From positions 1,890-65,889 of the forward strand of contig JAIOQY010000032.1 of the NCBI GenBank assembly GCA_021108435.1: 64,000 nucleotides of DNA, written 5' to 3'. Below are positions 6,884 to 23,100 of the stretch, piece by piece. The translations under genes were made by a program, and so were the position numbers. The stretch's first letter is position 1. Every line of letters begins with the position of its first letter. Below the pieces are notes generated by a model that saw only the letters and a list, made by a program, of their open reading frames with translations, was not told where the DNA came from and did no database searches. The stretch comes from Candidatus Aegiribacteria sp. (lineage in GTDB: Bacteria > Fermentibacterota > Fermentibacteria > Fermentibacterales > JCC-6).

Positions 6884-8167
6884 ATGGATAAGGGCTTCAA
6901 CGCTTTTGAAATGGCACAAAAACAATTCGATCAGGTTGCAGACCAACTTGATCTTGAGCAGGGAACAAGAGCATTTTTACGCTGGCCGATGAGGGAATAT
7001 CATTTCATCATTCCTGTACACATGGATGATGGTTCTGTACAGGTATTTCGTGGATTCCGGGTACAGCACAGTGATGTTCGCGGTCCCTGTAAAGGTGGAA
7101 TAAGGTTCCATCCACAGGAAACCGAGGATACTGTCAGAGCTCTCGCGACATGGATGACCTGGAAAACCGCTGTTGTCGATATCCCTCTTGGAGGGGGCAA
7201 GGGCGGTGTTATCTGCGATCCTCACGAACTTTCAATGAGAGAGCAGGAACAGATCTGCCGCGGCTGGATCAGGAATGTCTGGAGAAACATCGGTCCCGTT
7301 CAGGACATACCTGCTCCTGATGTAATGACATCTCCACAGCACATGCTCTGGATGATGGACGAGTACGAAACGATAGTTGGCGGGAAGTATCCCGGTGTTA
7401 TCACAGGGAAGCCCGTTGGGAGCGGTGGATCTCTTGGAAGAACAGAGGCCACGGGATACGGTGTGATTTACACCGTACGGGAAGCGTTAACCAGAATGGG
7501 ACTTGATATCAGAGAAACTACCATGGCCTGCCAGGGCTTTGGTAACGTAAGTCAGTACGCGGCTGATCTGTTCATCAAATATGGAGGTAAAGTAGTCTGT
7601 GTATCCTGCTGGGATCAGAGCGATATGACTTCTTACACCTACCGTAAAATGGATGGAATAGATATTGAGTTTCTGCTGAGCATCACTGACAGATTCGGAA
7701 CGGTAAATCCCGAAAAGGCCATGGCAGCCGGATACGAACAGCTTTCCGGAGATGCCTGGATTGAAACCGAGGCGGATGTTCTGATGCCGGGAGCCCTCGA
7801 AAACCAGGTTAACGGTGAGACAGTTAACAAAATACATGCCAGAGTGAAAATCGTTGCCGAGGGTGCGAACGGCCCGACAACACCTGAAGCGGATGCTTAC
7901 CTGAAAGAGAACAATATCTTTGTGATTCCGGATTTCCTCTGCAACGCAGGAGGCGTTACCTGTTCATACTTCGAACAGGTTCAGAATAATATGAACTACT
8001 ACTGGGAGAAGGATGAAGTCCTTTCCAAACTTGATACAAAAATGACTTCAGCTTTCCATGCTGTTGCTGATCTTGCTGACAGCCAGTCAGTATATATGAG
8101 AGACGCAGCCTACATGATTGCTATCGACAGAGTAGCAACTGCGGCACGAATGAGAGGGCTTGTCTAG
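6884..8167 (+). CDS. gdh: glutamate dehydrogenase (Glu/Leu/Phe/Val dehydrogenase family, ~420-aa class)
   Basis: GGAGG RBS. Motifs KGGIRFHP and PLGGGKGGV, with a C-terminal Rossmann block GFGNVS. Confidence 0.9.
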   Translation: MDKGFNAFEMAQKQFDQVADQLDLEQGTRAFLRWPMREYHFIIPVHMDDGSVQVFRGFRVQHSDVRGPCKGGIRFHPQETEDTVRALATWMTWKTAVVDIPLGGGKGGVICDPHELSMREQEQICRGWIRNVWRNIGPVQDIPAPDVMTSPQHMLWMMDEYETIVGGKYPGVITGKPVGSGGSLGRTEATGYGVIYTVREALTRMGLDIRETTMACQGFGNVSQYAADLFIKYGGKVVCVSCWDQSDMTSYTYRKMDGIDIEFLLSITDRFGTVNPEKAMAAGYEQLSGDAWIETEADVLMPGALENQVNGETVNKIHARVKIVAEGANGPTTPEADAYLKENNIFVIPDFLCNAGGVTCSYFEQVQNNMNYYWEKDEVLSKLDTKMTSAFHAVADLADSQSVYMRDAAYMIAIDRVATAARMRGLV

Positions 8168-8273
8168 GCAACCCCCTGATGGGTCATAAGCATCATCCGA
8201 CATGCACGCTCTGGTTCGTGTCCCCGAATAATGCCCCTGCCTCTACCTGTTTCTGATTCGGAAAGGATATCTG

Positions 8274-10622
8274 ATGACTGAAAAAGCCGTAACTCCACAT
8301 GCAAAATTAAAAGATGAAAACAAACCCGAATGGAAAATCATCGTTGATCTTCTTGGAGATACAGATCCAGTTCTGCTGAAGCGTTTGAGCAGGAAGATGA
8401 TGAACTACCTTTTCAAACGGAAAGTCAAGAAAATATCCGAGATTATGGAGCAGTTCCATTTAAGAAAAGCAAATGGAAACAAGACGGGTGATCCTTATGG
8501 AGAAAATCAACCCGCGCCCAGGATTGATTACCAGGATCTGGAAAGCATCACAAGCCAGGTTTTCAGCGTTGCTGAAGAGGAACTGTCACCTGAGGAGCTT
8601 TCTCAAGCTATCCACAGATGGCTCCGATATGAAAGCACCAGGTTTCTTTCTGTAATTGCTGACCGCAGAGATGTTCCTCTGGGACAGCTCAGGGAAGCTC
8701 TGGAAAAATATGTTCTGCTTCCGGACAAAAACAAAAAGATGGACAGAAGCGAACAGAGGGGCATAATTGTAGACATTACAAGGCGAATATTCAACGATGA
8801 TCTGCAGTATATCAACACGATCAGCAAACATGTCCGGATAGAGGATTTCAGTGAAGTGCTTGATCATACTATCGGGCCTCTCAATGGTAACGGAAAAGTC
8901 GGCGGAAAAGCTTCAGGATTGTTCCGGGCTCAAAAAATTCTTGATTCACACAGAAAGCACAATGTAGTACTCAGGAATCTCAGGATACCAAGAACGTGGT
9001 ACATCTCATCCGATTCTATTCTGGAGTTCATTCATTACAATGCGCTTGAAGAGATGCTTGCAATCAAGTATTCGGATACTGATGAAATAAGGCAGGAATA
9101 CGAGCTTCTGGAGCAGGTATTCAAACATTCCCAGCTTCCATCATGTGTTCTGAGCGGTTTGAACTTTGCGCTGGACCATCTTGGTTCATCGCCTCTGATA
9201 GTCAGATCATCAAGCCTTCTCGAGGACAGCTCCGGTGCTGCTTTCGCTGGGAAATACAAAAGCCTTTTTGTTGCCAATACAGGCACCAGGAAAGAGAGAC
9301 TGGAAGCCATTTCTGACGCGATCCTTGAAGTATACGCAAGCGTATTCGGTCCTGATCCCATTGAGTACCGCCGCGAACGGGGATTGCTGGATTTCAATGA
9401 AGAGATGGGTATTCTTATCCAGGAGGTCGTCGGCAACAGGATAGGCAAGTACTATTTCCCACCTCTTGCCGGTGTGGCATTCAGCCGGAACGATTACAGA
9501 TGGTCTCCGAGGATCAAAAAGGAAGATGGAATGGTCAGGCTGGTTACCGGGCTGGGAACAAGAGCTGTAGATCGAACAGGAAAAGACTTTCCTGTTCTCA
9601 TGAGTCCCGGACAGCCAAAGATCAGAATCAATGCAGCTGAGGAGGAGATACTTCGCTACGCACAAAAGCATATGGACGTGATCAACCTTGAGAAAGGCTG
9701 TCTTGAAACCGTCAGCGTAGAAAGCATTATCAAGGAATGCGGCAGTAAATTCCCATGTCTTTCCTATATAGTCTCCATTGATGAAGGTGACCACATCCAG
9801 CTGTCTCCGGGTTCGATGTTCAACATTGAAAACAAGGATACAGTGGTAACATTCCATAATCTTCTCGAGAAGAGCCCGGTTCCTTTACTTTTTAAGACAA
9901 TGCTCAGTATTCTCGAGGATGAAATTGGTATGCCGGTTGATATTGAATTTGCGTACAGCTCTGATATACATACACCTTACCTGCTTCAATGCAGACCGCA
10001 GAGTATTGGAGACGGGCTTGCAGACACATCAATTCCGAAGAACATCCCGAAGGACGATATACTTTTCACAGCGGACAGGTACATCATGTCCGGTCTATGC
10101 CATAACATAGAATATCTTGTTTATGTTGATGGAGACGAGTATGACAGGATTTCATCAAGAGAAGGGCTTCTTCAGGTTGGTCATATAATAGGACAGCTGA
10201 ACAAGAAACTTCCCAATAAGAAATTTGTGCTGATCGGCCCTGGAAGATGGGGAAGTAAAGGTGATATCAAGATGGGTGTTCACGTTGGCTACTGTGATAT
10301 CAACAACACTGCTATGCTGATAGAGGTTGCAAAGAGCAAACAGGGCTATGTACCAGATCTTTCCTTCGGAACCCACTTTTTCCAGGATCTTGTAGAAGCT
10401 AATATCAAATATCTCCCCTTATACCCGGATGAACCAGGAGTGATATTCAGAGAGGATATATTCAGTACATCCAAAAACATACTTCGAAAGCTTGTAAGTA
10501 ATGCGGAAGAGTTTGAGCAGGTTATCAAGGTTGTAAAGATTTCAAATGAATTTCCCGGAGCGTCTGTCTGTATAATAATGGATAGTGACTCCGATTCAGC
10601 ACTCGCGTATCTGAAGAGGTGA
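8274..10622 (+). CDS. PEP/pyruvate-binding (PPDK_N ATP-grasp) domain protein of unknown function
   Basis: GGKASGL and IVRSSSLLEDSSGAAFAGKY match the nucleotide-binding half of PpsA/PPDK. I saw no T-S-H-A-A swivel motif. The C-terminal module carries GPGRWGS and GTHFFQD. Confidence 0.75.
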   Translation: MTEKAVTPHAKLKDENKPEWKIIVDLLGDTDPVLLKRLSRKMMNYLFKRKVKKISEIMEQFHLRKANGNKTGDPYGENQPAPRIDYQDLESITSQVFSVAEEELSPEELSQAIHRWLRYESTRFLSVIADRRDVPLGQLREALEKYVLLPDKNKKMDRSEQRGIIVDITRRIFNDDLQYINTISKHVRIEDFSEVLDHTIGPLNGNGKVGGKASGLFRAQKILDSHRKHNVVLRNLRIPRTWYISSDSILEFIHYNALEEMLAIKYSDTDEIRQEYELLEQVFKHSQLPSCVLSGLNFALDHLGSSPLIVRSSSLLEDSSGAAFAGKYKSLFVANTGTRKERLEAISDAILEVYASVFGPDPIEYRRERGLLDFNEEMGILIQEVVGNRIGKYYFPPLAGVAFSRNDYRWSPRIKKEDGMVRLVTGLGTRAVDRTGKDFPVLMSPGQPKIRINAAEEEILRYAQKHMDVINLEKGCLETVSVESIIKECGSKFPCLSYIVSIDEGDHIQLSPGSMFNIENKDTVVTFHNLLEKSPVPLLFKTMLSILEDEIGMPVDIEFAYSSDIHTPYLLQCRPQSIGDGLADTSIPKNIPKDDILFTADRYIMSGLCHNIEYLVYVDGDEYDRISSREGLLQVGHIIGQLNKKLPNKKFVLIGPGRWGSKGDIKMGVHVGYCDINNTAMLIEVAKSKQGYVPDLSFGTHFFQDLVEANIKYLPLYPDEPGVIFREDIFSTSKNILRKLVSNAEEFEQVIKVVKISNEFPGASVCIIMDSDSDSALAYLKR

Positions 10623-10625
10623 GAA

Positions 10626-10645
10626 GGGGTCGGACGTCCGACCCC
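10626..10645. terminator. bidirectional hairpin between convergent genes
   Basis: Perfect 20-nt GC-rich palindrome GGGGTCGGAC/GTCCGACCCC. It sits exactly between the stop at 10622 (+) and the stop at 10654 (-). Confidence 0.7.
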
Positions 10646-10653
10646 CCCAGGTT

Positions 10654-12006
10654 CTAGACTACGCCCTGAGCCATCATGGCATCGGCGACCTTGCGGAAGC
10701 CGGCTGCATTTGCTCCAAGCACATAGTTTCCAGGATCACCGTAGAATTTTGCTGCTTCGTAAGCCTGGCTGTGTATACTGATCATGATGTTATGAAGTTT
10801 CTCATCGACCTCTTTGCGGGTCCAGCTTGAGAATATGGCGTTCTGTGCCATCTCAAGACCTGAAGTCGAAACTCCACCGGCGTTAGCGGCTTTTCCTGGG
10901 CCATATAGAACCTTGTGGTCAAGGAATATGTTTACACCCTCAGGAACCGTAGGCATGTTGGCTCCCTCGGAGACAAGGAAGACGCCATTGTTGATAAGGT
11001 TCTGAGCATCCTTCGCGTTGATCTCATTCTGTGTAGCACTCGGGAATGAGCAATCCGCCTTATGATCCCAGAGAGGATTGTAGTCGAGATCAGGATCGAC
11101 AGCTGTGTAGACAGCGTTCGGATATTTCTCTACGTATTCCTTTATTCTGCCTCTTTTTACGTTCTTGAGGTCCATCACATATGCGAGTTTATCGGCATCG
11201 ATACCGTCCTCATCGTAAATGTATCCACTGGAATCTGAAAGAGTGACCACTTTACCACCGAGTTCTGTAATTTTCTCGGTAGCAAACTGGGCAACGTTAC
11301 CTGATCCCGAAACAAGACAGACCTTATCCTGGTAGCTGTCACCACGTGTTTTGAGCATCTCTTCGCCGAAGTAGACAGCGCCGTAACCGGTGGCTTCCGG
11401 TCTGATAAGACTTCCGCCATACTCGCGGCCTTTACCAGTGAGTACGCCGCTCCATTCATTGCGAAGCTTTTTGTACTGTCCGAAAAGGAAACCGATCTCA
11501 CGTCCGCCAACACCAATATCGCCTGCCGGAACATCAGTGTTCGGCCCGATATGACGGAAAAGCTCGGACATGAAGCTCTGGCAGAAGCGCATTACTTCAA
11601 GGTCGGATTTTCCCTTGGGATCAAAATCGGATCCACCTTTACCGCCACCCATGGGGATGGTTGTGAGAGCGTTCTTGAAAACCTGCTCAAACGCGAGGAA
11701 CTTGAGGATGCCAAGGTTCACCGAAGGGTGGAATCGAAGACCGCCCTTATAGGGTCCTATAGCACTGTTCATCTCGATACGGAATCCACGGTTCACATGG
11801 ATCTCTCCACTGTCATCTACCCATGGAACACGGAACATGATAACGCGTTCAGGTTCAACTATACGCTCAGGAATTTTCGCACTCCTGTATTCAGGGTGCT
11901 TATCAAGCACCACTTCAAGCGATTCAAGGACTTCCTGTACAGCCTGATGGAATTCCGGCTGAGAAGGATCCCTCTGTACTACCTTCTGGTAGAGTTCTTC
12001 GAGCAT
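10654..12006 (-). CDS. gdhA: NADP-specific glutamate dehydrogenase (E. coli GdhA-type, ~450 aa)
   Basis: YKGGLRFHPSVNLGILKFLAFEQVFKN, PMGGGKGGSDFDPKGKS and GSGNVA are classic GdhA motifs. An RBS-like AAGGGGA lies upstream. Confidence 0.92.
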   Translation of the reverse strand: MLEELYQKVVQRDPSQPEFHQAVQEVLESLEVVLDKHPEYRSAKIPERIVEPERVIMFRVPWVDDSGEIHVNRGFRIEMNSAIGPYKGGLRFHPSVNLGILKFLAFEQVFKNALTTIPMGGGKGGSDFDPKGKSDLEVMRFCQSFMSELFRHIGPNTDVPAGDIGVGGREIGFLFGQYKKLRNEWSGVLTGKGREYGGSLIRPEATGYGAVYFGEEMLKTRGDSYQDKVCLVSGSGNVAQFATEKITELGGKVVTLSDSSGYIYDEDGIDADKLAYVMDLKNVKRGRIKEYVEKYPNAVYTAVDPDLDYNPLWDHKADCSFPSATQNEINAKDAQNLINNGVFLVSEGANMPTVPEGVNIFLDHKVLYGPGKAANAGGVSTSGLEMAQNAIFSSWTRKEVDEKLHNIMISIHSQAYEAAKFYGDPGNYVLGANAAGFRKVADAMMAQGVV

Positions 12007-12258
12007 TTTCAGTCCCCTTTCAAAGGATAAGTTGAGGTTTCAATAGGATCAAATCTTTACAATGAATGTGTTAGCTTAATCGAGGACGTATCACTCTGTC
12101 AATAGCATACCAGTTTTCAGGAATACCGGGTGTTTTATATCTTTACTTGACCTTATGCTTTGTCGGAAGATATGATGCTGACTTGGTGCGCTTATCTGTA
12201 ATTACATCTGGAGAGTTTTCTTTAAGCAAAGAATCCAGTATCAGCGAGAGGAACTCGT

Positions 12259-15234
12259 GTGACGGAACTGATCAAGGGAAGAAAAAAAAGGCTTCAGCTG
12301 AGGAAAATTGAATCCCGGCTGGACAGCCTTATGAAAACCAGAATTCGGAATATCCTGCTCATATGCAGTCTATATGATTACTATATGATAGAGGAGGATG
12401 GAAGACTTGGTGACCTTCTTGGAAACACCTACACGATAAGTGACGCAGGGAATATTCCTGTAATTACTCAGATATCAAATGCTGATACCGCCCTTGAACT
12501 TCTCGGAAAAGACGCGGGGCAAAGTATTGATCTTATCATCTGCATGGCAAGAATCGGAAGTATGGATTTTCCTGAATTCATCAGGAACATCAGGACTATT
12601 CGCTCCGATCTTCCGATTGTTGTACTGGCTCACAGCCCTGAGGAACTGTTGAGGCTGCAGGAAAAACACTGGACTGATGAAACCAACAGGGTTTTCACCT
12701 GGCTCGGGCGCGGAGAGACTGTACTTGGAATAATCAGACTTGTTGAGGATTCAAGAAACGCGGAGCATGACTGCGCTGAACTTGGAGCGCCCTGCCTTCT
12801 GCTTGTTGAGGATGATGTCCATTTTTATTCAAGATATCTGTACGAGGTTATGACCATAATACAGGAAAGAACCATAGAAATTCTCGACAGTTTTTCATCT
12901 TTTACAAAAAGAAATCTCAGAGCCAGAACCAGAACGAAAGTATTGATGGTTACCTCACTTGAGGAAGCTGAGAAGATACTGGAAACTCATGGAGACGCGC
13001 TCATCGGAGTGATCACCGATATGAAATTTCTCAGAAAAGGTGAACTGGATGAAAAAGCGGGAAAAATTCTTATCAGGAAGATAAAGGAAACTCTGCCGGA
13101 AATGCCCGTTATCCTGCAGACATCTGAATCAAAAGGGCAGAAGATCGCTGCCGCGCTGGGTGTTGAATACATTTCAAAGAACTCACCGGCGCTGATGAGC
13201 GATCTCAGAAAATGTCTTGCAGAGTCCTTCGGATTCGGCGATCTTGTCTTCAGAAATGATGATGGAGAGATCATCAGATCAGTTTCAAATATTAAAGAAA
13301 TGAATCAGCTGATCGATAAAATACCTGCTGAATCTGTTTATCGGAGTTTGAGTACCGGCGAGCTGGTGCGCTGGCTGAAGATACAGACAGAACTTGAACT
13401 CGCATGCAGGGTACAGGAAAATTTATCAATGAACGGAACCCCGCTCGAAGTCAGAACCGGACTGGTTGATATTTTCAGCGATTTCAACAAAGAGAGCAGG
13501 CGGGGATATGTGTCAAATTACAGCAGATCCTTCCATGAGGATCAGATTCTTTTCAGCAGACTGGGATCAGGTTCAATGGGTGGCAAAGGAAGAGGGCTGG
13601 CTTTCATTGATCGGGTGCTGGCAGCCAATTTTGATGAAAGCAGATTCAAGAAAGTACATGTCTCTGTTCCACGTACACTTATAATAACGACGGAGTTCTT
13701 CGATAAATTCGTGTATCAGAACAAATTGCTGGAATTTGCTCTTGAATGCGATAATGATCTCAGAATTTTAAGACAGTTTTTAAAGGCTGACCTTCCCCCG
13801 ACCATTCTCGGTGATATCAGAGACTATATCAGAGCAGTCCGGTCACCGATTGCAGTGAGATCTTCAAGTCTCCTTGAGGACGCGATGTATCAGCCATTCG
13901 CCGGCATCTACGCCACAAAAATGCTTCCGAATAATTCCCGGAGCGAAGACAAGAGATTCAATGAACTGGCGGATGCCATTAAATTCGTTTACGCATCCAC
14001 ATTTCTCAAAGCCGCGAAGTCATATATCACAGCGACGAACCACCGCGTGGAGGACGAGAAGATGGCTGTTCTTCTTCAGGAAGTTGTTGGCAGGAATTAC
14101 GGACATTCCTTCTACCCGCATTTCGCCGGAGTCGGCCGGTCTTATGATTTCTATCCAACCGGTTCCGCAAAACCGGAGGATGGAGTTGTAAATGTCGCGC
14201 TGGGACTTGGGAAATCGATTGTTGATGGTGGCGTATCACTTCGGTTTACGCCGAAGTTCCCGAGGGTTCTTCCTCAGTTCGCAACTCTCAAGGATATGAT
14301 GAACAACTCTCAGCACAACTTCTATGCTGTGAGTATGGGTCACTCCGAATGGAGTTCTTCCCTTGATGAGGATCAGTACCTGATTCTGCAGGATCCTGGA
14401 GTTGCGGAGAGTGATGGAACCCTGGAATACCTGGCTTCAACGTACGATGCGGCTAATGAGAGAGTACTGGATGGCATCACACGATCCGGACCCAGAGTGA
14501 TCAACTTCGCGCATGTACTCAAGAATAAAGTCTTTCCACTCGCCCCTCTTACTGATGTGCTGCTTACTATGGGCGAGGATGCTATGGGGTGTCCTGTAGA
14601 GATCGAGTTCGCGGTTACTCTCGGCAAAAAGCGACCCCTTCCAGCTGAATTCAGTCTGCTCCAGATAAGACCCATGGTGGTCAGTGACAGGCTGGTGAAA
14701 GTAGATCTGACCAATATGGAGAAAAAAGAACTCTTCTGCTGGACGGACACAGCGCTCGGTAATGGAATAATCGATACGATCAAAGATATTGTGTATGTAA
14801 AACCGGACCAATTCGATGCATCTAAAACCCGTGCAATTGTAAAGGAAGTGGACAAACTAAACAGAGAACTGAGCAATGAAGGTAGATCTTACATGCTCAT
14901 CGGACCAGGCAGATGGGGTTCAACAGACCCCTGGCTTGGTATACCGGTAACCTGGAGCCAGATTTCAGGAGTGAAGGTTATAATGGAGGCAAGCCAGCAG
15001 AATATGAATATCGATCCATCCCAGGGTTCTCACTTTTTTCAGAATATGACTTCTCTTGGCGTTGCTTATTTTACGGTGTCTCATGTCAAGGAAAGTAATT
15101 TTATCGACTGGTCATGGCTTGATTCTCAACCGGCCGCAGCCGATGGCGAACTCCTGCGTCACATAAGCCTTGAGTCGCCCGTAAAAGTAATGATTGATGG
15201 ACGGTCCGGTAATGGAGTAATGGTTAAACCATAA
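12259..15234 (+). CDS. receiver-domain-containing PEP/pyruvate-binding (PPDK_N) protein of unknown function
   Basis: Paralogue of 8274..10622: GGKGRGLA, AVRSSSLLEDAMYQPFAGIY, GPGRWGS, GSHFFQN. It is preceded by two receiver-like modules. The start is GTG at 12259; ATG at 12331 is an alternative. Confidence 0.75.
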   Translation: MTELIKGRKKRLQLRKIESRLDSLMKTRIRNILLICSLYDYYMIEEDGRLGDLLGNTYTISDAGNIPVITQISNADTALELLGKDAGQSIDLIICMARIGSMDFPEFIRNIRTIRSDLPIVVLAHSPEELLRLQEKHWTDETNRVFTWLGRGETVLGIIRLVEDSRNAEHDCAELGAPCLLLVEDDVHFYSRYLYEVMTIIQERTIEILDSFSSFTKRNLRARTRTKVLMVTSLEEAEKILETHGDALIGVITDMKFLRKGELDEKAGKILIRKIKETLPEMPVILQTSESKGQKIAAALGVEYISKNSPALMSDLRKCLAESFGFGDLVFRNDDGEIIRSVSNIKEMNQLIDKIPAESVYRSLSTGELVRWLKIQTELELACRVQENLSMNGTPLEVRTGLVDIFSDFNKESRRGYVSNYSRSFHEDQILFSRLGSGSMGGKGRGLAFIDRVLAANFDESRFKKVHVSVPRTLIITTEFFDKFVYQNKLLEFALECDNDLRILRQFLKADLPPTILGDIRDYIRAVRSPIAVRSSSLLEDAMYQPFAGIYATKMLPNNSRSEDKRFNELADAIKFVYASTFLKAAKSYITATNHRVEDEKMAVLLQEVVGRNYGHSFYPHFAGVGRSYDFYPTGSAKPEDGVVNVALGLGKSIVDGGVSLRFTPKFPRVLPQFATLKDMMNNSQHNFYAVSMGHSEWSSSLDEDQYLILQDPGVAESDGTLEYLASTYDAANERVLDGITRSGPRVINFAHVLKNKVFPLAPLTDVLLTMGEDAMGCPVEIEFAVTLGKKRPLPAEFSLLQIRPMVVSDRLVKVDLTNMEKKELFCWTDTALGNGIIDTIKDIVYVKPDQFDASKTRAIVKEVDKLNRELSNEGRSYMLIGPGRWGSTDPWLGIPVTWSQISGVKVIMEASQQNMNIDPSQGSHFFQNMTSLGVAYFTVSHVKESNFIDWSWLDSQPAAADGELLRHISLESPVKVMIDGRSGNGVMVKP

Positions 15235-15273
15235 CATCGCTGCAACAGTGCGAAAAAAGTGAGGGAGTTGCAT

Positions 15274-16140
15274 ATGCACGAGATCCTTTTTAAAGAGGAG
15301 ATTGGACCTGACATTCATCTATATCGGTTCCATGCGCCCGATGTGGCCAGGTTCAGAAAGCCCGGCCAGTTCGTGATCGTAAGGATCAGCGATGAGGGAG
15401 AGCGAATTCCAATTACTATCGCTGATGTAAACCATGACAAGGGTAGTATTACTCTCATCGTGCAGTCAGTCGGGAAGACAACTCTGCAGATGGCCGGGAT
15501 GAATGTAGGCGACTCAATTCCGGACATAACCGGCCCTCTTGGAGTTCCGACACATATTGAGAAAGTAGGGAACGTACTCTGCGTTGGTGGCGGTATCGGG
15601 ATTGCTCCATTGTATCCTGTTGCGAAAGCAATGAAGGATATCGGTAATCGTGTGATCAGCATACTCGGCGCGAGATCCTCAAATCTTCTGATTCTCGAGA
15701 AGGAAATGAAAGAAGTGAGCAGCGAAGTGCTTATCACAACGGATGATGGAACAAAGGGCCGCAAAGGACTGGTCACGGATGCCATCAAGGAACTTGTCAG
15801 TCAGGGTGAGAAATTCAATCTGTGTGTTGCTATGGGACCGCCAATCATGATGAAATTTGTCAGCCTTCTTACGAAAGAACTTGATATTCCAACTATTGTC
15901 AGCCTGAATCCTATCATGATCGATGGTACTGGCATGTGCGGAGGCTGCAGAGTAACTGTGGGGGGTGAGACGAAATTTGCCTGTGTTGATGGACCTGAGT
16001 TCGATGGACATCAGGTTGATTTCGACGAATTGATGAAACGTCTGACGATGTACTCATCGCATGAAAAACAATCCCTTGACCGTTATTCGTCAAAGACCGG
16101 CTGCAAGCTGGCCAGCGTGCTGGAGGGGGATCAGGAATGA
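15274..16140 (+). CDS. nfnA: NfnA-type ferredoxin-NADP+ oxidoreductase subunit (PyrK-like FAD/2Fe-2S)
   Basis: ORF 15259..16140. I moved the start to ATG 15274, with GAGGGAG 6 nt upstream. PyrK-like fold with a C-terminal GMCGGCRV...C cluster. It is coupled to the GltD-like gene by an ATGA overlap. Confidence 0.75.
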   Translation: MHEILFKEEIGPDIHLYRFHAPDVARFRKPGQFVIVRISDEGERIPITIADVNHDKGSITLIVQSVGKTTLQMAGMNVGDSIPDITGPLGVPTHIEKVGNVLCVGGGIGIAPLYPVAKAMKDIGNRVISILGARSSNLLILEKEMKEVSSEVLITTDDGTKGRKGLVTDAIKELVSQGEKFNLCVAMGPPIMMKFVSLLTKELDIPTIVSLNPIMIDGTGMCGGCRVTVGGETKFACVDGPEFDGHQVDFDELMKRLTMYSSHEKQSLDRYSSKTGCKLASVLEGDQE

Positions 16141-17600
16141 ACATCAAGGAAAGACTTAAAATTCCGCCAACCATGATGCCCGAGCAGGATCCCGCCGAGC
16201 GGATCACCAATGTGGAAGAGGTTCCCCTTGGTTATACCCCGGAGATGGCAATGCTGGAAGCGAAGAGGTGTGTTCAATGCAAAACTCCGTTCTGTGTGGA
16301 AGGATGTCCTGTCGGAATTGATATTCCGGGCTTTATCAAATTGATAGAGGACGGAGATTTTCGTGGGGCGATAAACAAGATGAAGGAGAAGAACCTCCTC
16401 CCCGCCATCTGCGGCAGGGTATGCCCTCAGGAGGAACAGTGTCAGCTGGTCTGCACAATAGGAAAGGCACAGAAAGATCCCTGCAAAGCCGTGATGATCG
16501 GGAAACTCGAACGGTTCGTAGCGGACTGGGAACGGGAACAGGGAGAGTACGATCTTCCGCCCGAAGTCAAACCTTCAGGCAGAAAAGTTGCTGTTATCGG
16601 TGCAGGGCCTGCTGGTTTGACGGTTGCCGGCGATCTGATCAGGTTCGGACATTCCGTGACAGTGTTTGAAGCGCTTCACAAGGCTGGAGGAGTGCTGGTT
16701 TACGGTATTCCCGAATTCAGGCTCCCCAAAGCAATTGTCCAGGGGGAAGTTGATTATCTCGAGAAACTAGGAGTCAATTTCCGATACAATTTCGTTGTGG
16801 GCAAGACAGCTCCGGTGAGTCAGCTTATCGAAGATTATGACGCAGTATTTATCGGGACCGGAGCAGGGCTTCCGCGATTCATGAGGGTCGATGGAGAAAA
16901 CCTCCTGGGTGTTCTATCCGCTAATGAGTATCTGACAAGGGCCAACCTGATGAAAGCTTACAGTTTTCCGGAAACCGATACGCCTATAGTAACAGGGAAG
17001 AAAGTAATCACTGTCGGCGGCGGAAACGTTGCTATGGACTGCGCCAGAACTGCACTGAGAATGGGCGCTGCCAGATCGCTTATCGTTTACCGCAGAGCAG
17101 AGGAACAGATGCCGGCAAGACTCGAAGAGATTCATCATGCCAGGGAAGAAGGAGTTGAATTCCACCTTCTGCAGAACCCCGTCAGTCTTATCGGGAATGA
17201 GGCCGGATGGATATCTGGAGCCAGACTTATTAAAATGGAACTGGGAAAACCTGACTCTTCCGGGAGAAGAAGACCTGTTCCCATTGAAGGGTCAGAGTTC
17301 ATCGAAGAGACCGACGCGCTGATTGTCGCGATAGGTAACAGTCCAAACCCTCTAGTACCGGCTTCATTCCCGGAGCTGGAGGTCACAAGATGGGGCGGAG
17401 TTGTTGTCAACGAGTTAACAGGTCAAACCTCTGTTCCAGGCGTTTTTGCCGGAGGTGATATTGTACTCGGGGCTGCGACGGTTATTCTCGCGATGGGACA
17501 CGGCCGGCGTGCAGCAAAGGCGATGAATCTGTATCTGAATTCCGGTCGCTGGGTCGATCTGGACAAAGCAATGGACCTGTCCAGAGCTGAAGTGCGATAA
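16137..17600 (+). CDS. nfnB: NfnB-type / glutamate synthase small-subunit-like NADPH oxidoreductase
   Basis: CVQCKTPFCVEGCP...CGRVCPQEEQC, VAVIGAGPAGLT and GGGNVAMDCART form the GltD family pattern. There is no GOGAT large subunit nearby. Confidence 0.8.
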   Translation: MNIKERLKIPPTMMPEQDPAERITNVEEVPLGYTPEMAMLEAKRCVQCKTPFCVEGCPVGIDIPGFIKLIEDGDFRGAINKMKEKNLLPAICGRVCPQEEQCQLVCTIGKAQKDPCKAVMIGKLERFVADWEREQGEYDLPPEVKPSGRKVAVIGAGPAGLTVAGDLIRFGHSVTVFEALHKAGGVLVYGIPEFRLPKAIVQGEVDYLEKLGVNFRYNFVVGKTAPVSQLIEDYDAVFIGTGAGLPRFMRVDGENLLGVLSANEYLTRANLMKAYSFPETDTPIVTGKKVITVGGGNVAMDCARTALRMGAARSLIVYRRAEEQMPARLEEIHHAREEGVEFHLLQNPVSLIGNEAGWISGARLIKMELGKPDSSGRRRPVPIEGSEFIEETDALIVAIGNSPNPLVPASFPELEVTRWGGVVVNELTGQTSVPGVFAGGDIVLGAATVILAMGHGRRAAKAMNLYLNSGRWVDLDKAMDLSRAEVR

Positions 17601-17683: not shown

Positions 17684-18670
17684 TTGAAAGGCCGCGTACT
17701 TATTATTGACGATGAAGCTGAGATTCGACGCAATCTTACAGTAGGTCTTACTCAGGAAGATTACACTGCCGTTGCCTGTCCTGATGGTATTTCCGCGATT
17801 CATGAACTGAATCAGTCTCGAGAAAAGGGTGTAGCATACGATTATCTTATTACTGACATATTCATGCCGGATATCGATGGTCTGAAGATACTCAAGGTGA
17901 TAAAAAATCAGTATCCCGACCTTCCCGTTCTCGTAATTACGGGCTTCGGGGATGAGAGACTGATGATGACCGCGCTTTCAGAACAGAACACCGGTTATCT
18001 GGACAAGCCATTTGAAATATCGGATCTTGTAGAAGCTCTTGAGGAATTGTCTCCTGGGAAAACAGGAACCGAAACAGAAGAAGCTTCAGTTGATGACGGT
18101 ATGCGGGAATCGGTAAGCGCCTACCTGACCGTGAAGATAACGGAACCTGACAGAAGCATGGAGATATTTGATATCCTTTACAGGATGGATGGTATCCAGT
18201 CATGCGATGCTGTGAGAGGTGATTTCGACATAATACTTCTCGTTCAGGCTTCTTCGACTGATGAAATCCAGGAGATATTCAGCAGAGTCAAAGAACTGGA
18301 CGGCATTGAAGTGCTGTCCATGTCTCAAATTGAGCGTCCAAAGCTCGACAGAGATGTAGACTCCTTTATCGATACATACCAGAAGGCCGTCAAAAGGGAC
18401 GTTCAGGCAGAAGCCAGAAGACAGCCGGGAACGATGAGTTATATCATCGTTGACATAGATCCGGATGCGATTCAGCAGATATTTACAACGGTTTTCTTCA
18501 TCGATGAAGTTGTCTTCTGTGATGTTATCGAAGATGGTGCTAAGCTTGTCGGTATGATTACCGGTCATGGAGCCATGGGGAAAACTCCCCGGATCATTGA
18601 GAAACTGAGTCAGATTGATGGTGTTCTTAGAGTTCGTGAAGCCAAAGTAATAAATCTTATTGATGACTGA
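17684..18670 (+). CDS. response regulator receiver fused to two RAM (Lrp/AsnC ligand-binding-like) domains, no DNA-binding domain seen
   Basis: GGAGGA RBS with a TTG start. REC motifs are VLIIDDE, ITDIFMPDIDG, VITGFG and LDKPF. Two alpha-beta sandwich-like blocks follow: AYLTVKI...GDFDIILLVQASS...LDGIEV and SYIIVDI...KLVGMITG...IDGVLRV. Confidence 0.65.
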   Translation: MKGRVLIIDDEAEIRRNLTVGLTQEDYTAVACPDGISAIHELNQSREKGVAYDYLITDIFMPDIDGLKILKVIKNQYPDLPVLVITGFGDERLMMTALSEQNTGYLDKPFEISDLVEALEELSPGKTGTETEEASVDDGMRESVSAYLTVKITEPDRSMEIFDILYRMDGIQSCDAVRGDFDIILLVQASSTDEIQEIFSRVKELDGIEVLSMSQIERPKLDRDVDSFIDTYQKAVKRDVQAEARRQPGTMSYIIVDIDPDAIQQIFTTVFFIDEVVFCDVIEDGAKLVGMITGHGAMGKTPRIIEKLSQIDGVLRVREAKVINLIDD

Positions 18671-18797
18671 TGGCCGCTCAATCTTTTCAGGGTTGTCATC
18701 AGGATAATGAAATTAAACCGGTTTATGATCTGAATCTGTTGTAGCGGACCGAAAACGGAATTCGGGTCAATGAGAGGAAGTGGTGATCACGGCTACA

Positions 18798-19298
18798 ATG
18801 AGGGAGAATTTCAGTTACAGGCTATGGAGATATGACGGAGCACCCGGTGAGCTTATCCCTCTTCTGCAGTCTGCCCAGGAACACTTCGGTTACATACCCA
18901 TCCGCGCGATCAACTACATTTCCGGAGTAACCGGAATACCTGAGTCGGATATCTATGGAGTTATTACTTTTTACAGTCAGTTCAGACTTCGCCCCATGGG
19001 TAAGTACATTATTCGTGCGTGCGCCGGAACTGCCTGTCATGTATCCGGGGCTAAAATGATTATAGAGACTATCGAGGATGAACTCGGGATCGAAGTCGGT
19101 GATACATCGGAGGACGGGATGTACACTCTGAATACGGTAGCCTGCATCGGCTGCTGTTCTCTTGCGCCTGTTATAATGATTAATGACGAGACTTACGGTC
19201 GGCTTACACCTGCATCGCTGCGGAAACTTCTTCGTGAACATATCCGTAAGACCGGCGCAAAAGCCGATTCTGTCGTAGGAGCATCCTGCGGCGGTTAA
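18798..19298 (+). CDS. NuoE/HydC-like 2Fe-2S thioredoxin-fold subunit
   Basis: CAGTACHVSGA...CIGCCSLAPV is the NuoE-type 2Fe-2S motif. I chose the ATG at 18798; the ORF track start, GTG 18780, is an alternative. Confidence 0.8.
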   Translation: MRENFSYRLWRYDGAPGELIPLLQSAQEHFGYIPIRAINYISGVTGIPESDIYGVITFYSQFRLRPMGKYIIRACAGTACHVSGAKMIIETIEDELGIEVGDTSEDGMYTLNTVACIGCCSLAPVIMINDETYGRLTPASLRKLLREHIRKTGAKADSVVGASCGG

Positions 19299-19347
19299 AT
19301 GTTTCGATTTATGAAATCCATTTGTGAAAAACGTCTGGAGCGCTGAA

Positions 19348-21129
19348 ATGAAGACAATTGTAGTAGGTATGGGAACATGCGGTCTTTCCGCCGGGGCCAG
19401 GGTTGTGTTCGAAAAGCTGGAGGAGCTTGCAAGCGCGAATGCAGATATCTGCCGGCTGACAATATCCGGATGCATCGGCATGTGCTATCGGGAGCCTCTG
19501 GTGGAAATCAGGGATGGCGTCCGCAGAGTCTTCTACGGAGGAGTCACCACAGAATCCGCTGAAAAGATCTTTGAGAGCAATGTGCTGAATGATAATAGAA
19601 TTGAAGACAACAACCTGGTCTACGTTATCGAACGGGACGGATCGACTTCCGGTTCCGAAGCCGGTTTTCTTGACCTTCAGGAGAGAATAGTCCTCCGCAA
19701 TTGCGGTACGATCAATCCTGAGTCCATTTCAGATTACATGGAATCAGGCGGCTACGAAAGCCTGAAAGAGATTCTTTTCAAGTGGTCTCCTGAGCAGATA
19801 ATTCAGGAAGTGAAGAATTCTGGACTTCGTGGAAGAGGAGGAGCCGGATTTCCTACAGGTCTGAAATGGTCCTTTGCCGCCTCAAACGAAGCTGACAGAA
19901 AATATGTTGTATGCAATGCCGATGAGGGTGACCCCGGCGCGTTTATGGATCGTTCTGTTCTGGAGGGAGATCCTCACTCCGTTCTGGAAGGCATGATCAT
20001 CTGTGCCAGAGCGATCGGTGCGGACTTCGGTTATATCTACTGCAGAGCGGAATATCCCCTGGCTATTCACCGGCTTGAAATAGCACTGTCAGAAGCCAGA
20101 GAGAAGGGCTATCTCGGCAAAGATATACTGGGTTCCGGCTTCAATTTTGACATTAAAATCAAGCAGGGCGCGGGAGCGTTCGTCTGCGGAGAAGAGACAG
20201 CGCTTTTTGCCTCGATCGAAGGCGAACGCGGAATGCCCCGTATTCGCCCCCCTTTCCCAGCGGAAAAAGGTCTCTGGCAGAAGCCCACCAATAACAATAA
20301 TGTGGAAACCTACGCCAATATTCCATGGATAATAGCGAACGGCGCTGACGCATACGCTGCTTTCGGAACAGAGAAAAGTCCCGGCACCAAGGTTTTTGCC
20401 CTTGCGGGGAAAGTCGTTCACGGAGGTCTTGCCGAGGTTTCAATGGGAACCACAATAGATGACCTCGTCTTCAGGATCGGCGGAGGCATCAAGGAAGGCA
20501 GGGAGTTCAAGGCAGTACAGATGGGCGGTCCATCCGGCGGCTGTATTCCAGCCAGTCTGAAGAATACTCCCGTGGATTTCGAATCAATACCTGCCACCGG
20601 AGCCATCATGGGCTCAGGCGGAATGGTTGTAATGGACGATACGACCTGCATGGTCGAGATTGCAAGGTTCTTTCTGGATTTCACACAGAACGAATCCTGC
20701 GGTAAATGTACTTTCTGCAGGATCGGCACGCTCAGGATGCTTGAAATTCTTGAGAGACTGACCCGTGGTGAGGGACTTCCTGAAGACATAGAAAAACTTG
20801 AGCAGCTTTCAATTCAGATAAAGGAAGCAAGTCTCTGCGGGCTCGGGCAGACAGCTCCCAATCCTGTACAGACAACGATACGATATTACCTGGATGAATA
20901 TCTGGCACATATCAACGATAAACGGTGTCCGGCAGGAAGCTGCCTAGCTCTGGTCGAATTCAGTATCGATGCTGATAAGTGTGTCGGATGTACGATCTGC
21001 GCGAAGAATTGTCCGGTTGACGCAATCTCCGGAAAAGTCAAAGAACTACACGTTATTGATCAGGAAATCTGCGTGAAATGCGGCAAGTGCATTACAAGCT
21101 GCAATTTCAACGCAGTAATTACAAGGTAG
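19348..21129 (+). CDS. NuoF/HydB-like NADH-binding FMN/Fe-S flavoprotein subunit
   Basis: I moved the start to ATG 19348, with GGAG 7 nt upstream. N-terminal thioredoxin-like 2Fe-2S domain (GMGTCG...GCIGMC). Motifs GLRGRGGAGFPTG, NADEGDPGAF and SCGKCTFCR. Two C-terminal ferredoxin CxxCxxCxxxCP motifs. Confidence 0.88.
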   Translation: MKTIVVGMGTCGLSAGARVVFEKLEELASANADICRLTISGCIGMCYREPLVEIRDGVRRVFYGGVTTESAEKIFESNVLNDNRIEDNNLVYVIERDGSTSGSEAGFLDLQERIVLRNCGTINPESISDYMESGGYESLKEILFKWSPEQIIQEVKNSGLRGRGGAGFPTGLKWSFAASNEADRKYVVCNADEGDPGAFMDRSVLEGDPHSVLEGMIICARAIGADFGYIYCRAEYPLAIHRLEIALSEAREKGYLGKDILGSGFNFDIKIKQGAGAFVCGEETALFASIEGERGMPRIRPPFPAEKGLWQKPTNNNNVETYANIPWIIANGADAYAAFGTEKSPGTKVFALAGKVVHGGLAEVSMGTTIDDLVFRIGGGIKEGREFKAVQMGGPSGGCIPASLKNTPVDFESIPATGAIMGSGGMVVMDDTTCMVEIARFFLDFTQNESCGKCTFCRIGTLRMLEILERLTRGEGLPEDIEKLEQLSIQIKEASLCGLGQTAPNPVQTTIRYYLDEYLAHINDKRCPAGSCLALVEFSIDADKCVGCTICAKNCPVDAISGKVKELHVIDQEICVKCGKCITSCNFNAVITR

Positions 21130-21138
21130 GAGCGGCCA

Positions 21139-23100
21139 ATGGAAAAAATCAGACTGAAGATCAACGGTCAGGAAATAGAGGCCACTCCAGGGAAAACAAT
21201 TCTCGAAGTGGTTCAGGAGCAGGAACTCGATGACATACCCACTCTCTGTCACTCACCTGAACTCGAACCTTACGGTTCCTGTTTTGTATGCGTGGTCGAG
21301 GTAAAGGGAAGGGCGAATCTTGTTCCTTCATGCGCGACTCGAATAGCTCCGGACATGGAAATACTTACTCGAAGCGATAGAGTTCTGGCATCCAGAAAAA
21401 CGGCGCTCGAATTGCTGCTGTCCAACCATTATGCTGATTGCGTCTCCCCCTGTATGGAGGGATGCCCCGCCGGAGTTGACGCCCAGGGATATATTGCCCT
21501 TTCGGCGATGGGACAGTACAGGAAAGCTGTCGACCTCATTCGCGAAAAGAATCCCTTTCCAGCTGCCTGCGGAAGAGTATGCGTCCGCAAGTGCGAGGAC
21601 GTCTGCAGAAGAATGGATGTGGATGCGTCCGTTGCGATAAACAACATCAAGAGATTTGTCACTGATTCCCCCGAGGCTTACGCCACGAAACCGGTATGCG
21701 CCCCCTCTACAGGTAAAACAGCAGGGATCATCGGCGCTGGACCGGCGGGTCTTACCGCCGCCTGGTTCCTTGGAAAAAACGGGATCAAATGTGAAGTTTA
21801 CGAAGCCATGGATCGTACTGGAGGAATGCTGCGATACGGTATTCCCGAGTACAGACTTCCGGATGATGTTCTCGACAGAGAAGTGGAGTACATCTGCAGA
21901 ACAGGTACCACGATTCACTGCGGGGTTCGGGTGGGGAAGGACATCACGCTGGATGAGATCAGGGAAAAGCATAACGCTGTTTTCATCGGAGCAGGCGCAT
22001 GGACAGGCAAGGCAATGCGGGTTGAGGGTGAGTTTGATACCGAAGGCGTCGTAACCGGCGCTGACTTCCTGGTTGAAAAGGCAGATGATCCTCAGCCGCT
22101 GAAGGGTACTGTGGTTGTGGTCGGTGGTGGAAATACCGCCATGGACGCGGCAAGAACTGCCTGGAGACTGAATGCGGACAAGGTCATCGTTCTTTACAGA
22201 AGAACCAAAGCGGAGATGCCGGCTGACGCCATGGAAATTGAAGATTGTCTTGAAGAGGGCATTGAGATCATGGAGCTGGCCGCACCAATCGGTATCGTGA
22301 GGAAGGATGACAGACTCAGCGCTCTGCGCTGCCAGCGCATGAAGCTTGGTGAGCCGGATGATTCCGGAAGACGAAGACCTGTTCCACTGGAAGGTTCGGA
22401 ATTTGACCTTCCCTGTGACCTGGCTATTTCAGCCATCGGGCAGAATACAGTTCTTGATGGACTTGTAGAAACCAGAGATGGCGATGTGGACCTGACAAGA
22501 TGGAATACATACATTGCGGATCTCAGTACAATGGCTACGAACATTGAAGGAGTATTTGCAGGTGGTGATGCTGCGGATGATGGTCCTACCGTTGTTATCG
22601 ATGCTATCAGAGACGGTCAGAGAGCCGCCAGGGCAATAACAGCCTGGCTTGACGGCGTTCAGCCGAAACCTTACCCGTTCGTGGTTGCAAAGGAATTCTG
22701 GTCAAAGCCGGGGAAAGCTGAACTCGGCGATGTAAAGGAATCACCCAGACATGAAGTCCACCAGATAGATGTTGAAGACCGCAGAAACAATTTTACAGAG
22801 GTATCGAATGGTTTTGAGCCTGAGGATAACGAACATGAATGCGATAGGTGCCTTTCCTGTGGCTGCGTAAGATTCGATGATTGCGATCTCCGGCTCTATG
22901 CTGAGGAATATGGCGTTGATATGGAGTACTTCAAAGGCCATGTAAGAAAACACAAGGTTGATGACAGGCACCCTTACATATCCTACGATCCCAACAAATG
23001 TGTACTCTGCGCGAGATGTATCCGAACCTGCCGCCATCGGACTTGTGGGAAGAGGATTCAAAACCGAAATGCGCCCCGCTATGAACAATCCTCTTGTTGA
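21139..23100 (+). CDS. N-terminal part of a split Bfu/Stn-type large subunit: 2Fe-2S + GltD-like NADPH module + start of Fe-S domain
   Basis: 2Fe-2S motif CHSPELEPYGSCFVCVV...C. GltD-like motifs CGRVCVRKCEDVC, IIGAGPAGLTAA and GGGNTAMDAART. It ends inside CVLCARCIRTC and is followed by a nonsense tail. See the frameshift finding. Confidence 0.7.
   Translation: MEKIRLKINGQEIEATPGKTILEVVQEQELDDIPTLCHSPELEPYGSCFVCVVEVKGRANLVPSCATRIAPDMEILTRSDRVLASRKTALELLLSNHYADCVSPCMEGCPAGVDAQGYIALSAMGQYRKAVDLIREKNPFPAACGRVCVRKCEDVCRRMDVDASVAINNIKRFVTDSPEAYATKPVCAPSTGKTAGIIGAGPAGLTAAWFLGKNGIKCEVYEAMDRTGGMLRYGIPEYRLPDDVLDREVEYICRTGTTIHCGVRVGKDITLDEIREKHNAVFIGAGAWTGKAMRVEGEFDTEGVVTGADFLVEKADDPQPLKGTVVVVGGGNTAMDAARTAWRLNADKVIVLYRRTKAEMPADAMEIEDCLEEGIEIMELAAPIGIVRKDDRLSALRCQRMKLGEPDDSGRRRPVPLEGSEFDLPCDLAISAIGQNTVLDGLVETRDGDVDLTRWNTYIADLSTMATNIEGVFAGGDAADDGPTVVIDAIRDGQRAARAITAWLDGVQPKPYPFVVAKEFWSKPGKAELGDVKESPRHEVHQIDVEDRRNNFTEVSNGFEPEDNEHECDRCLSCGCVRFDDCDLRLYAEEYGVDMEYFKGHVRKHKVDDRHPYISYDPNKCVLCARCIRTCRHRTCGKRIQNRNAPRYEQSSC

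Follow-up and report, generated by a model that had tools for sequence, protein, structure and literature searches.

In a stretch of 64,000 nucleotides of Candidatus Aegiribacteria sp. (contig JAIOQY010000032.1, positions 1,890–65,889; hereafter the window, whose own numbering is used below), two genes for glutamate dehydrogenase (GDH), gdh1 and gdhA, lie next to the genes of two large proteins, A and B, respectively. Both proteins belong to a large family in which a PPDK_N-type ATP-grasp domain is followed by a new, histidine-bearing C-terminal module of ~190 aa (C-module). The pairing of this family with gdh recurs across more than 15 phyla, gut Bacteroides included, and is class-specific, with A accompanying GDH of the gdh1 type (GDH1) and B that of the gdhA type (GDH2). 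It is almost certain that the function of the family is directly tied to GDH. With somewhat less than even confidence, we favour the reading that A and B would be signal-gated, ATP-dependent modifiers of their cognate GDH, acting via a phosphohistidine intermediate.

The four genes are arranged in the window as follows. The open reading frame (ORF) positions, gaps and strands given for them and for nfnAB in a preliminary description of this DNA, as well as its motif coordinates, matched the ORF map exactly, and the gene calls were backed by Pfam and NCBIfam:

6884–8167, + strand: gdh1 (427 aa; ORF map), with the Pfam domains ELFV_dehydrog_N and ELFV_dehydrog
8274–10622, + strand: protein A (782 aa; ORF map), after a 106-nt gap following gdh1
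10654–12006, − strand: gdhA, encoding GDH2 (450 aa), tail-to-tail with A and divergent from B
12259–15234, + strand: protein B (991 aa, GTG start), head-to-head with gdhA

The best relatives of the gdh1 product in the PDB are the Thermococcus and Pyrococcus GDHs (E 2e-125), and the enzyme is assigned to the hexameric-type GDHs of the Thermococcales/Thermotoga/RocG-like class, as the partner of protein A. The gdhA product carries the same two Pfam domains and, with 738 bits, lies above the cut-off (536) of the NADP-GDH equivalog PRK09414, a result that identifies the enzyme as an NADP-specific glutamate dehydrogenase of the E. coli type. Among named organisms, Candidatus Sabulitectum and Fermentibacteria have the closest relatives of A and B (59–73% identity).

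The linkage was evaluated in two surveys of gene neighbourhoods. The A survey drew on one genome per GTDB species and found at least 595 relatives, the best 80 of which (41–55% identity) were taken as A orthologues; six-frame ORFs of their loci were scored against the window proteins, and a locus counted as informative if 3.5 kb or more of DNA was available upstream (n = 55). The B survey covered 80 B-orthologue loci (37–52% identity) on metagenome contigs, 60 of them informative by having at least 1.8 kb of upstream DNA. The lineages of the A survey were Caldisericota, Acidobacteriota (including Aminicenantes, Holophagae and Thermoanaerobaculia), Bacteroidota, Ignavibacteria, Calditrichota, Zixibacteria, Eisenbacteria, Krumholzibacteriia, Planctomycetota, Myxococcota, Chloroflexota, Gemmatimonadota, Spirochaetes, Firmicutes, Kiritimatiellae, relatives of Fibrobacteres, and Thermoplasmata archaea. 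A GDH1-type gene was upstream of A on the same strand in 49 of the 55 informative loci, and a gdh of any type was present in 52. Around B, gdh was directly upstream in 34 of the 60 informative loci, 32 of these being GDH2-type genes on the same strand, and was found anywhere in the locus in 44. With one to three gdh genes per several-Mb genome, we estimate the probability that a randomly chosen gene has gdh nearby, at a distance of a few kb, to be well below 1%. The linkage is therefore not confined to this genome, and the role tied to GDH that the preliminary description had raised for both proteins is supported. Individual look-ups of loci around B and its relatives agree with the surveys, with one exception:

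Bacteroides (three loci): gdh one to three genes from B
Tenuifilaceae: gdh divergent from two paralogues
Aminicenantes: gdh near B
one further lineage: B followed by gdh, with a gap of 69 nt
Ca. Sabulitectum: gdh1 followed by A, and gdh2 divergent from B, without nfnAB
another Fermentibacteria-like contig: gdh2 divergent from B
Zixibacteria: no gdh beside B, an exception

When all neighbour ORFs of the 80 A loci were clustered all against all, the only widely shared families were the PPDK_N family itself (80/80) and GDH (63/80). Next came NfnB-like proteins (8 loci), an unknown 149-aa protein (8) and NuoF-like proteins (6), and no pathway enzyme travelling with the family was found among the clustered ORFs. 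The unknown protein of ~149 aa, which has no Pfam match, lies just downstream of the long form of A in 8 of the 80 loci (e.g., L084:12757–13203, in locus:position notation).

The genes nfnA and nfnB follow B directly in the window, and the preliminary description had related A and B to NADPH-transhydrogenase genes and NAD(P)H status as well. This linkage is real and the order recurs, GDH2, B, NfnA and NfnB being found in succession in about 8 of the 80 B loci, but it concerns a minority of loci only: Nfn-like genes were present in 6–8 of the 80 A loci and about 8 of the 80 B loci, and are absent from the Ca. Sabulitectum locus. The pair was rejected as a general core partner and is a context gene pair, not a core part of the system.

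Proteins A and B are paralogues, with 29% identity over 542 aa comprising the ATP-grasp and the C-module (E 2e-48). In A, the only Pfam family matched is PF01326 PPDK_N (E 8e-52, aa 208–579, nt 8895–10010), and in B this domain was again the only match, at aa 439–822 (E 4.6e-39, nt 13573–14724). The ATP-grasp motifs GGK[AG]xGL, [IA]VRSSSLLED and FAGxY are present in both. The AF2 model of A (pLDDT 84.8, pTM 0.81) consists of a helical N-terminal domain, the ATP-grasp and the alpha/beta C-module, and B begins with two receiver-like domains that had not been mentioned before. The parts outside the ATP-grasp are:

aa 1–205 of A, nt 8274–8888, + strand: N-terminal helical domain, all-helical in the AF2 model (aa ~19–200)
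aa 583–782 of A, nt 10020–10619, + strand: C-module
about aa 28–160 of B, + strand: degenerate receiver-like domain without an acceptor Asp
about aa 178–312 of B, + strand: canonical receiver with acidic pair E184-D185, acceptor D254 (nt 13018–13020) and K307
about aa 812–991 of B, nt 14692–15231, + strand: C-module

That neither protein is a PpsA or PPDK, as proposed from the motifs, was confirmed in several ways. At E ≤ 0.01, Pfam detected neither PEP-utilizers nor PEP-utilizers_C in A or B, and a motif search did not find G-x-T-S-H in either protein. The phosphoenolpyruvate (PEP)/pyruvate TIM barrel PF02896 had no Pfam match in A or B, and both end ~200 aa past the ATP-grasp. A profile search of PDB sequences, and Foldseek with a confident model of the C-module, likewise revealed no swivel domain or barrel. 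When the whole A model was compared with the PDB by Foldseek, rifampin phosphotransferase, Neisseria meningitidis PpsA, HpeI and PPDK were retrieved with E values from 1e-13 to 1e-6, in all cases through the ATP-grasp only. Members of the family carry the database names "PEP/pyruvate-binding domain-containing protein", "hypothetical protein" and "CheY-like chemotaxis protein" and, wrongly, "phosphoenolpyruvate synthase" and "pyruvate, water dikinase". These last two labels are what speaks for regarding the genes as ordinary or degraded PpsA/PPDK genes, or their adjacency to gdh as fortuitous, but the probability of such an explanation is negligible. The NCBIfam PpsA/PPDK models gave ~50 bits or less against cut-offs of 598–883 and aligned with the N-terminal part alone, swivel and barrel are missing, full-length identity across phyla reaches 40–57% with the C-module intact and invariant, and the linkage to gdh appeared in two independent surveys. 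The NCBIfam models for RPH and PigC were also far from their cut-offs (15–51 bits against 999–1300) and likewise aligned with the N-terminal part alone.

What A and B carry in place of the missing domains is the C-module, and the family signature, G-x-G-R-W-G-[ST] ... E ... S-x-G-x-H-F-F directly after PPDK_N, is present in both proteins. Its motifs are in the following positions:

10236–10256, + strand: GPGRWGS of A (G655–S661), a glycine-rich loop after a beta-strand
14902–14922, + strand: GPGRWGS of B
10368–10388, + strand: G[TS]HFFQ[DN] of A
15025–15045, + strand: G[TS]HFFQ[DN] of B
10374–10376, + strand: codon of His701 of A (S-x-G-T-H-F-F-Q), candidate phospho-acceptor at the N-terminus of predicted helix 701–708
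15031–15033, + strand: codon of His925 of B

In the AF2 models, the invariant His lies at the N-terminus of a predicted helix, behind the element formed by the beta-strand and the Gly-rich loop GPGRWGS. Because S-x-G-T-H-F-F resembles the G-G-x-T-S-H-A-A of swivel domains, the C-module of A (aa 583–782) was also modelled alone, which yielded a confident fold (pLDDT 90.6, pTM 0.89). Foldseek gave nothing significant for this isolated model (best E 0.1, TM <0.32), no dikinase chain was among the matches listed, and the weak matches were to alpha/beta domains of the Rossmann- or flavodoxin-like kind. No PDB sequence was matched by a profile of 34 C-modules, and the same 34 modules in isolation matched no Pfam family at E ≤ 10, PEP-utilizers (PF00391) included. 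A divergent swivel phosphohistidine domain is not supported by these three results, and a remote or permuted relationship between the two may still exist. Within the reach of these tools, swivel and barrel are both absent, and the C-module represents an undescribed alpha/beta domain of ~190 aa without a Pfam model. Searched against 1.84 billion representative proteins, its profile retrieved 2,430 clusters at 50% identity. The module is C-terminal in the listed proteins of ~560 aa or more, except for a few fusions of ~1,500–1,650 aa with an additional internal copy; short matches are probably gene fragments.

Conservation was determined in an alignment of 138 members from other genomes, comprising 80 A-type, 36 "short" and 22 B-type proteins ("short" being a third paralogue described below). 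In A numbering, K212, R311, S312, E317, D318, E376, M378, Q383, E558 and Q572 of the ATP-grasp and G657, R658, G660, E684, S697, H701, F702 and F703 of the C-module are invariant (138/138), and the nucleotide- and Mg-binding motifs GGK, VRSS..ED..FAG, E-F and LQxRP are kept. The His of GxHFFQ, previously singled out as a candidate phospho-acceptor, is therefore among the residues that never vary. Because both sets are invariant in three paralogue classes, all three look catalytically competent. This result bears on another possible role, that of a nucleotide or energy-charge sensor controlling GDH by binding and not by covalent modification. The tight, class-specific linkage to gdh and the capacity of an ATP-grasp to bind ATP or AMP would suit such a sensor, and there is a precedent for an enzyme-like GDH regulator that acts by complex formation: in Thermus thermophilus, AMP activation of GDH is conferred by a catalytically inactive homologue of adenine phosphoribosyltransferase. 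However, invariance of the ATP-grasp catalytic residues throughout the three classes is unexpected for a pure binding module, and the C-module, in which a His, an Arg, a Glu and a Ser are likewise invariant, argues for chemistry, so that a binding sensor appears quite improbable.

The N-terminal and accessory parts of the family members have a signalling character. The second receiver of B has the acidic pair, acceptor Asp, Thr/Ser and Lys expected of a two-component receiver, and E184, D185, D254 and K307, in the context LLLVEDD...GVITD...LQTS...SK, are invariant in 15 B members. Pfam Response_reg matched the window B only below threshold (27.6 bits; cut-off 30.2), in its first and degenerate domain, while in the orthologue of locus L006 the cut-off was passed with 41.7 bits. 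Most A orthologues are longer than the window protein (~1,060 aa), adding an N-extension of ~145 aa, which is GAF-like and shares homology with the GAF part of a histidine kinase encoded in locus L005, and a C-terminal NTP_transf_2/Pol-beta nucleotidyltransferase. The latter has an intact GS...DxD motif and a weak resemblance to the protein-AMPylating MntA. In the Zixibacteria, equivalent modules are encoded beside B by separate genes, namely those of a histidine kinase with a GAF domain, a receiver protein, a nucleotidyltransferase and a phosphoesterase of the Metallophos family. A gene for a calcineurin-like Metallophos protein of ~289 aa overlaps the stop codon of B in Aminicenantes (L086:10987–11856), is also found at L005:4635–5501 and recurs near B in two metagenome loci (among L094–L173); none was seen in the window. 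This phosphoesterase is a candidate for the reverse (phosphatase) activity. Taken together, these domain fusions and neighbouring genes point to a signalling or regulatory enzyme system and not to a catabolic pathway.

The third paralogue belongs to the usual operon in other phyla, in which gdh1 is followed by the "short" protein (582 aa, ATP-grasp and C-module only) and then by the long A (~1060 aa); an example is L071:5706–7454 and L071:7455–10631, and the arrangement is also that of most of L006–L085. A further PPDK_N paralogue directly preceded A in 50 of the 80 loci. The commonest orders were GDH1, short, A (25 loci) and GDH1, A (18 loci), and B can stand in for the short form. Natural fusions of the short form and A exist as frames of 1,500–1,740 aa with two C-modules (P0408–P0410; L010:2873–7900, L017:1425–6308, L036:6951–11768, L048:1144–5904 and L059:7511–12724), which suggests joint action of the two paralogues as a single unit. 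No short paralogue and no nucleotidyltransferase homologue was found in the window, where A is also devoid of the GAF-like and nucleotidyltransferase domains. An anti-phage defence system was considered and rejected, as PADLOC reported nothing for A, B or the short paralogue and gave only weak PDC-S09 matches to the nucleotidyltransferase of a long A orthologue.

The same signalling traits could belong to enzymes whose target is other than GDH, acting for instance on a transcription factor or producing a nucleotide signal for nitrogen or redox genes, with gdh merely co-regulated. The receiver and GAF-like inputs and the nucleotidyltransferase output are compatible with this, as are the B loci without a nearby gdh. 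No alternative target is conserved nearby, however, and the family is locked to gdh, not to a regulator gene; we give this possibility little credence.

In the mechanism that we favour, each protein would serve the GDH of its neighbouring gene: A the GDH1-type enzyme of the gene just before its own, and B the E. coli-type GdhA, whose gene is divergent from that of B. The ATP-grasp would bind ATP and move a phosphoryl group onto a histidine, as characterised PPDK_N enzymes do; the part of the acceptor would fall to H701 in A and to H925 in B, the invariant C-module histidine beside the GPGRWGS loop. In support of this choice, S-x-G-[TS]-H at the N-terminus of a helix parallels, by analogy, the G-G-x-T-S-H of dikinase swivel domains. 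The phosphoryl group would then pass to the cognate GDH hexamer and switch its activity. Gating of B would come from some histidine kinase that phosphorylates its second receiver (D254), and gating of A from its N-terminal helical domain, to which orthologues elsewhere add the GAF-like sensor and the nucleotidyltransferase. The formation of phosphohistidine, GDH as its acceptor and the direction of the effect are inferred. The PEP-dependent version of such a modification, raised in the preliminary description alongside the ATP-dependent one, is unlikely because A and B have no PEP-binding domain.

Several observations weigh against this mechanism. A phosphohistidine relay would draw on one invariant residue and a motif analogy, and the C-module is not detectably a swivel domain. 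Linkage at the operon level would be equally expected for an enzyme acting on a substrate or product of GDH. To our knowledge, the substrates of the characterised PPDK_N enzymes (PpsA, PPDK, GWD, RPH, PigC and phenylphosphate synthase) are in every case small molecules or glucans, and never a protein. The linkage is incomplete, with no gdh within reach in 16 of the 60 informative B loci, and for the window A the arguments from the GAF-like and nucleotidyltransferase fusions apply by orthology only.

Alternatively, the family could be small-molecule dikinases or ligases that phosphorylate, or thereby activate, a GDH metabolite or a derivative of it, converting ATP to AMP and Pi like rifampin phosphotransferase, phenylphosphate synthase or PigC, with GDH supplying or removing the metabolite. 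The substrates of the characterised enzymes agree with this explanation, and the nearest structural and sequence relatives are RPH, PpsA, HpeI and PigC. The polar set R658, D664, E684, S697 and H701 of the C-module resembles a catalytic site more than a phospho-carrier, and operon linkage to a metabolic enzyme usually signals a shared pathway. Yet no other pathway enzyme is conserved nearby, we know of no ATP-consuming step of this kind on glutamate or 2-oxoglutarate, and fusions to receiver, GAF-like and nucleotidyltransferase domains are typical of signalling proteins. The pairing of each paralogue class with one GDH class (A with GDH1, B with GDH2), moreover, would be needless for one common metabolite and is more readily explained by a protein target. 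A small-molecule substrate is for these reasons rather unlikely.

The family belongs to the PPDK_N superfamily, and its nearest conceptual relatives are the barrel-less and split dikinases (RPH, phenylphosphate synthase, HpeHI), with GlnE/GlnD and AceK as functional analogies. With PpsA and PPDK it shares a homologous N-terminal ATP-grasp (PF01326) in which the nucleotide- and Mg-binding motifs are kept. Unlike them, it lacks the swivel PF00391 and the barrel PF02896, two of the three defining features, has the C-module and regulatory domains instead, and is linked to gdh and not to gluconeogenesis genes. RPH (PDB 5HV1, 5FBS) and PigC/RedH are the best matches to the family (Foldseek E 1e-13, phmmer E 4e-7); these are barrel-less dikinase-type enzymes whose ATP-grasp phosphorylates something other than pyruvate. 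However, RPH and PigC still have a canonical swivel His domain at the C-terminus, as well as a large domain for substrate binding, neither of which is present in the A/B family, and the A/B genes are not near resistance or pigment genes. The split dikinases, namely phenylphosphate synthase and the HpeHI/AcvAB type, also have PPDK_N apart from the PEP barrel and a separate His-bearing partner, with subunits or paralogues encoded side by side, and HpeI (PDB 9GOJ) was a Foldseek match to A (E 2e-10). In these systems, in contrast, the His partner can be recognised as a PEP-utilizer domain, and the enzymes, encoded in clusters for aromatic catabolism, act on phenolic small molecules.

The analogy with GlnE/GlnD is functional only. 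These proteins exert a signal-responsive, reversible covalent control over a nitrogen-assimilation enzyme, and the long A has a nucleotidyltransferase of the Pol-beta type. Nevertheless, the ATP-grasp/C-module core is unrelated to them, the target would be GDH and not glutamine synthetase, and the window A and B have no nucleotidyltransferase. The bifunctional kinases/phosphatases AceK, which acts on isocitrate dehydrogenase, and PDRP/PSRP, which act on PPDK/PpsA, share with our proposal the concept of a dedicated kinase encoded next to its one metabolic enzyme, but have unrelated folds and gave no Foldseek or HMM match to the A/B family.

In the human-gut Bacteroides, B orthologues form clusters with thousands of member sequences from gut metagenomes. 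B lies there near a 445-aa gdh flanked by genes for Xaa-Pro aminopeptidase and prolyl-oligopeptidase (L091:4274–12976, L001, L090). In the loci examined, B is upstream of this gdh and divergent from it, with a peptidase gene in between, and in one strain AAA ATPase and HNH/NinG-like genes are inserted between the prolyl-oligopeptidase gene and B. Baggio and Morrison, in 1996, reportedly described a trans-acting gene downstream of B. thetaiotaomicron gdhA; no link to the B family is claimed here, because the gene order in Bacteroides does not place B downstream of gdh. Yamamoto et al. are said to have reported post-translational control of Bacteroides GDH in 1987. In Ca. Sabulitectum, a glutamine synthetase gene (L092:20169–21500) lies ~2 kb beyond B on the opposite strand.

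The remaining features around the locus in the window are as follows:

10626–10645: perfect 20-nt palindrome GGGGTCGGACGTCCGACCCC, in the 31-nt tail-to-tail spacer between A and gdhA
12007–12258: divergent intergenic region of gdhA and B, 252 nt
15259–16140, + strand: nfnA, 24 nt downstream of B (422 bits with NCBIfam PRK06222, cut-off 220)
16137–17600, + strand: nfnB (NCBIfam TIGR01316, 625 bits, cut-off 472)
17684–18670: response-regulator receiver fused to an AsnC/Lrp-type ligand-binding (RAM-like) domain, directly after nfnB
18780–24778: gene set with NuoE-like, NuoF-like and GltD-like/2Fe-2S plus molybdopterin (formate-dehydrogenase-like) proteins, after the locus
24902–29146: hybrid histidine kinase of 1,414 aa (two GAF, four PAS and a receiver domain), downstream of the locus
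31096–33084 and 33081–34445: PAS histidine kinase with an NtrC-type sigma-54 activator, downstream of the locus

The palindrome had been described as a terminator shared by A and gdhA. The hairpin itself is real and folds as an 8-bp GC stem, but its function as a terminator is only putative because it has no T-tract and a terminator scan made no call on it. In the intergenic region, one sigma-70-like match was found (12147–12176, + strand), not above the chance expectation for the region. The receiver protein with the AsnC/Lrp-type domain may belong to the same regulatory circuit as A and B, and the hybrid and PAS histidine kinases are candidate inputs to the receiver domain of B; the PAS kinase weakly resembles the GAF-like N-extension present in long A orthologues (E 9e-5). 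The formate-dehydrogenase-like component consists in the window of two ORFs in different frames, 21139–23100 and 22958–24778, which overlap by 143 nt and could be the result of a frameshift, a sequencing error or a genuine split. In the Tenuifilaceae (L004) it is a single protein of 1,232 aa, and the same trio adjoins gdh.

GDH stands at the junction of carbon and nitrogen metabolism. For the protein-fermenting anaerobes in which the family occurs (Fermentibacteria, Aminicenantes, Thermoplasmata, Ignavibacteria, Bacteroides and others), it is also the point of exit from amino-acid catabolism. The prokaryotic enzyme has long been regarded as controlled mainly by transcription and allostery, and our literature searches found no published characterisation of the A/B family and no paper tying it to GDH. 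The family nevertheless amounts to ~2,400 clusters at 50% identity with strict catalytic conservation and near-obligate linkage to gdh, while its signature domain has no Pfam model and its database names are misleading. In its broadest form, our proposal would give GDH an ancient covalent-modification switch of its own, on a par with GlnE/GlnD for glutamine synthetase, in which a dikinase-type ATP-grasp is combined with an unprecedented phosphohistidine domain, with a paralogue for each GDH class, two-component and GAF inputs and, in many phyla, a nucleotidyltransferase; we consider this possible, if doubtful. Even if the target were a metabolite, the family would define a missing reaction next to GDH. 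If GDH is modified, a new layer of nitrogen control would be at work in gut and sediment microbes, the C-module would be a new phosphohistidine-type domain, and the dikinase superfamily would extend to protein substrates. The family would then include the first PPDK_N enzyme with a protein substrate, active in the dominant Bacteroides of the human gut, and old reports of reversible inactivation of Bacteroides GDH might be explained.

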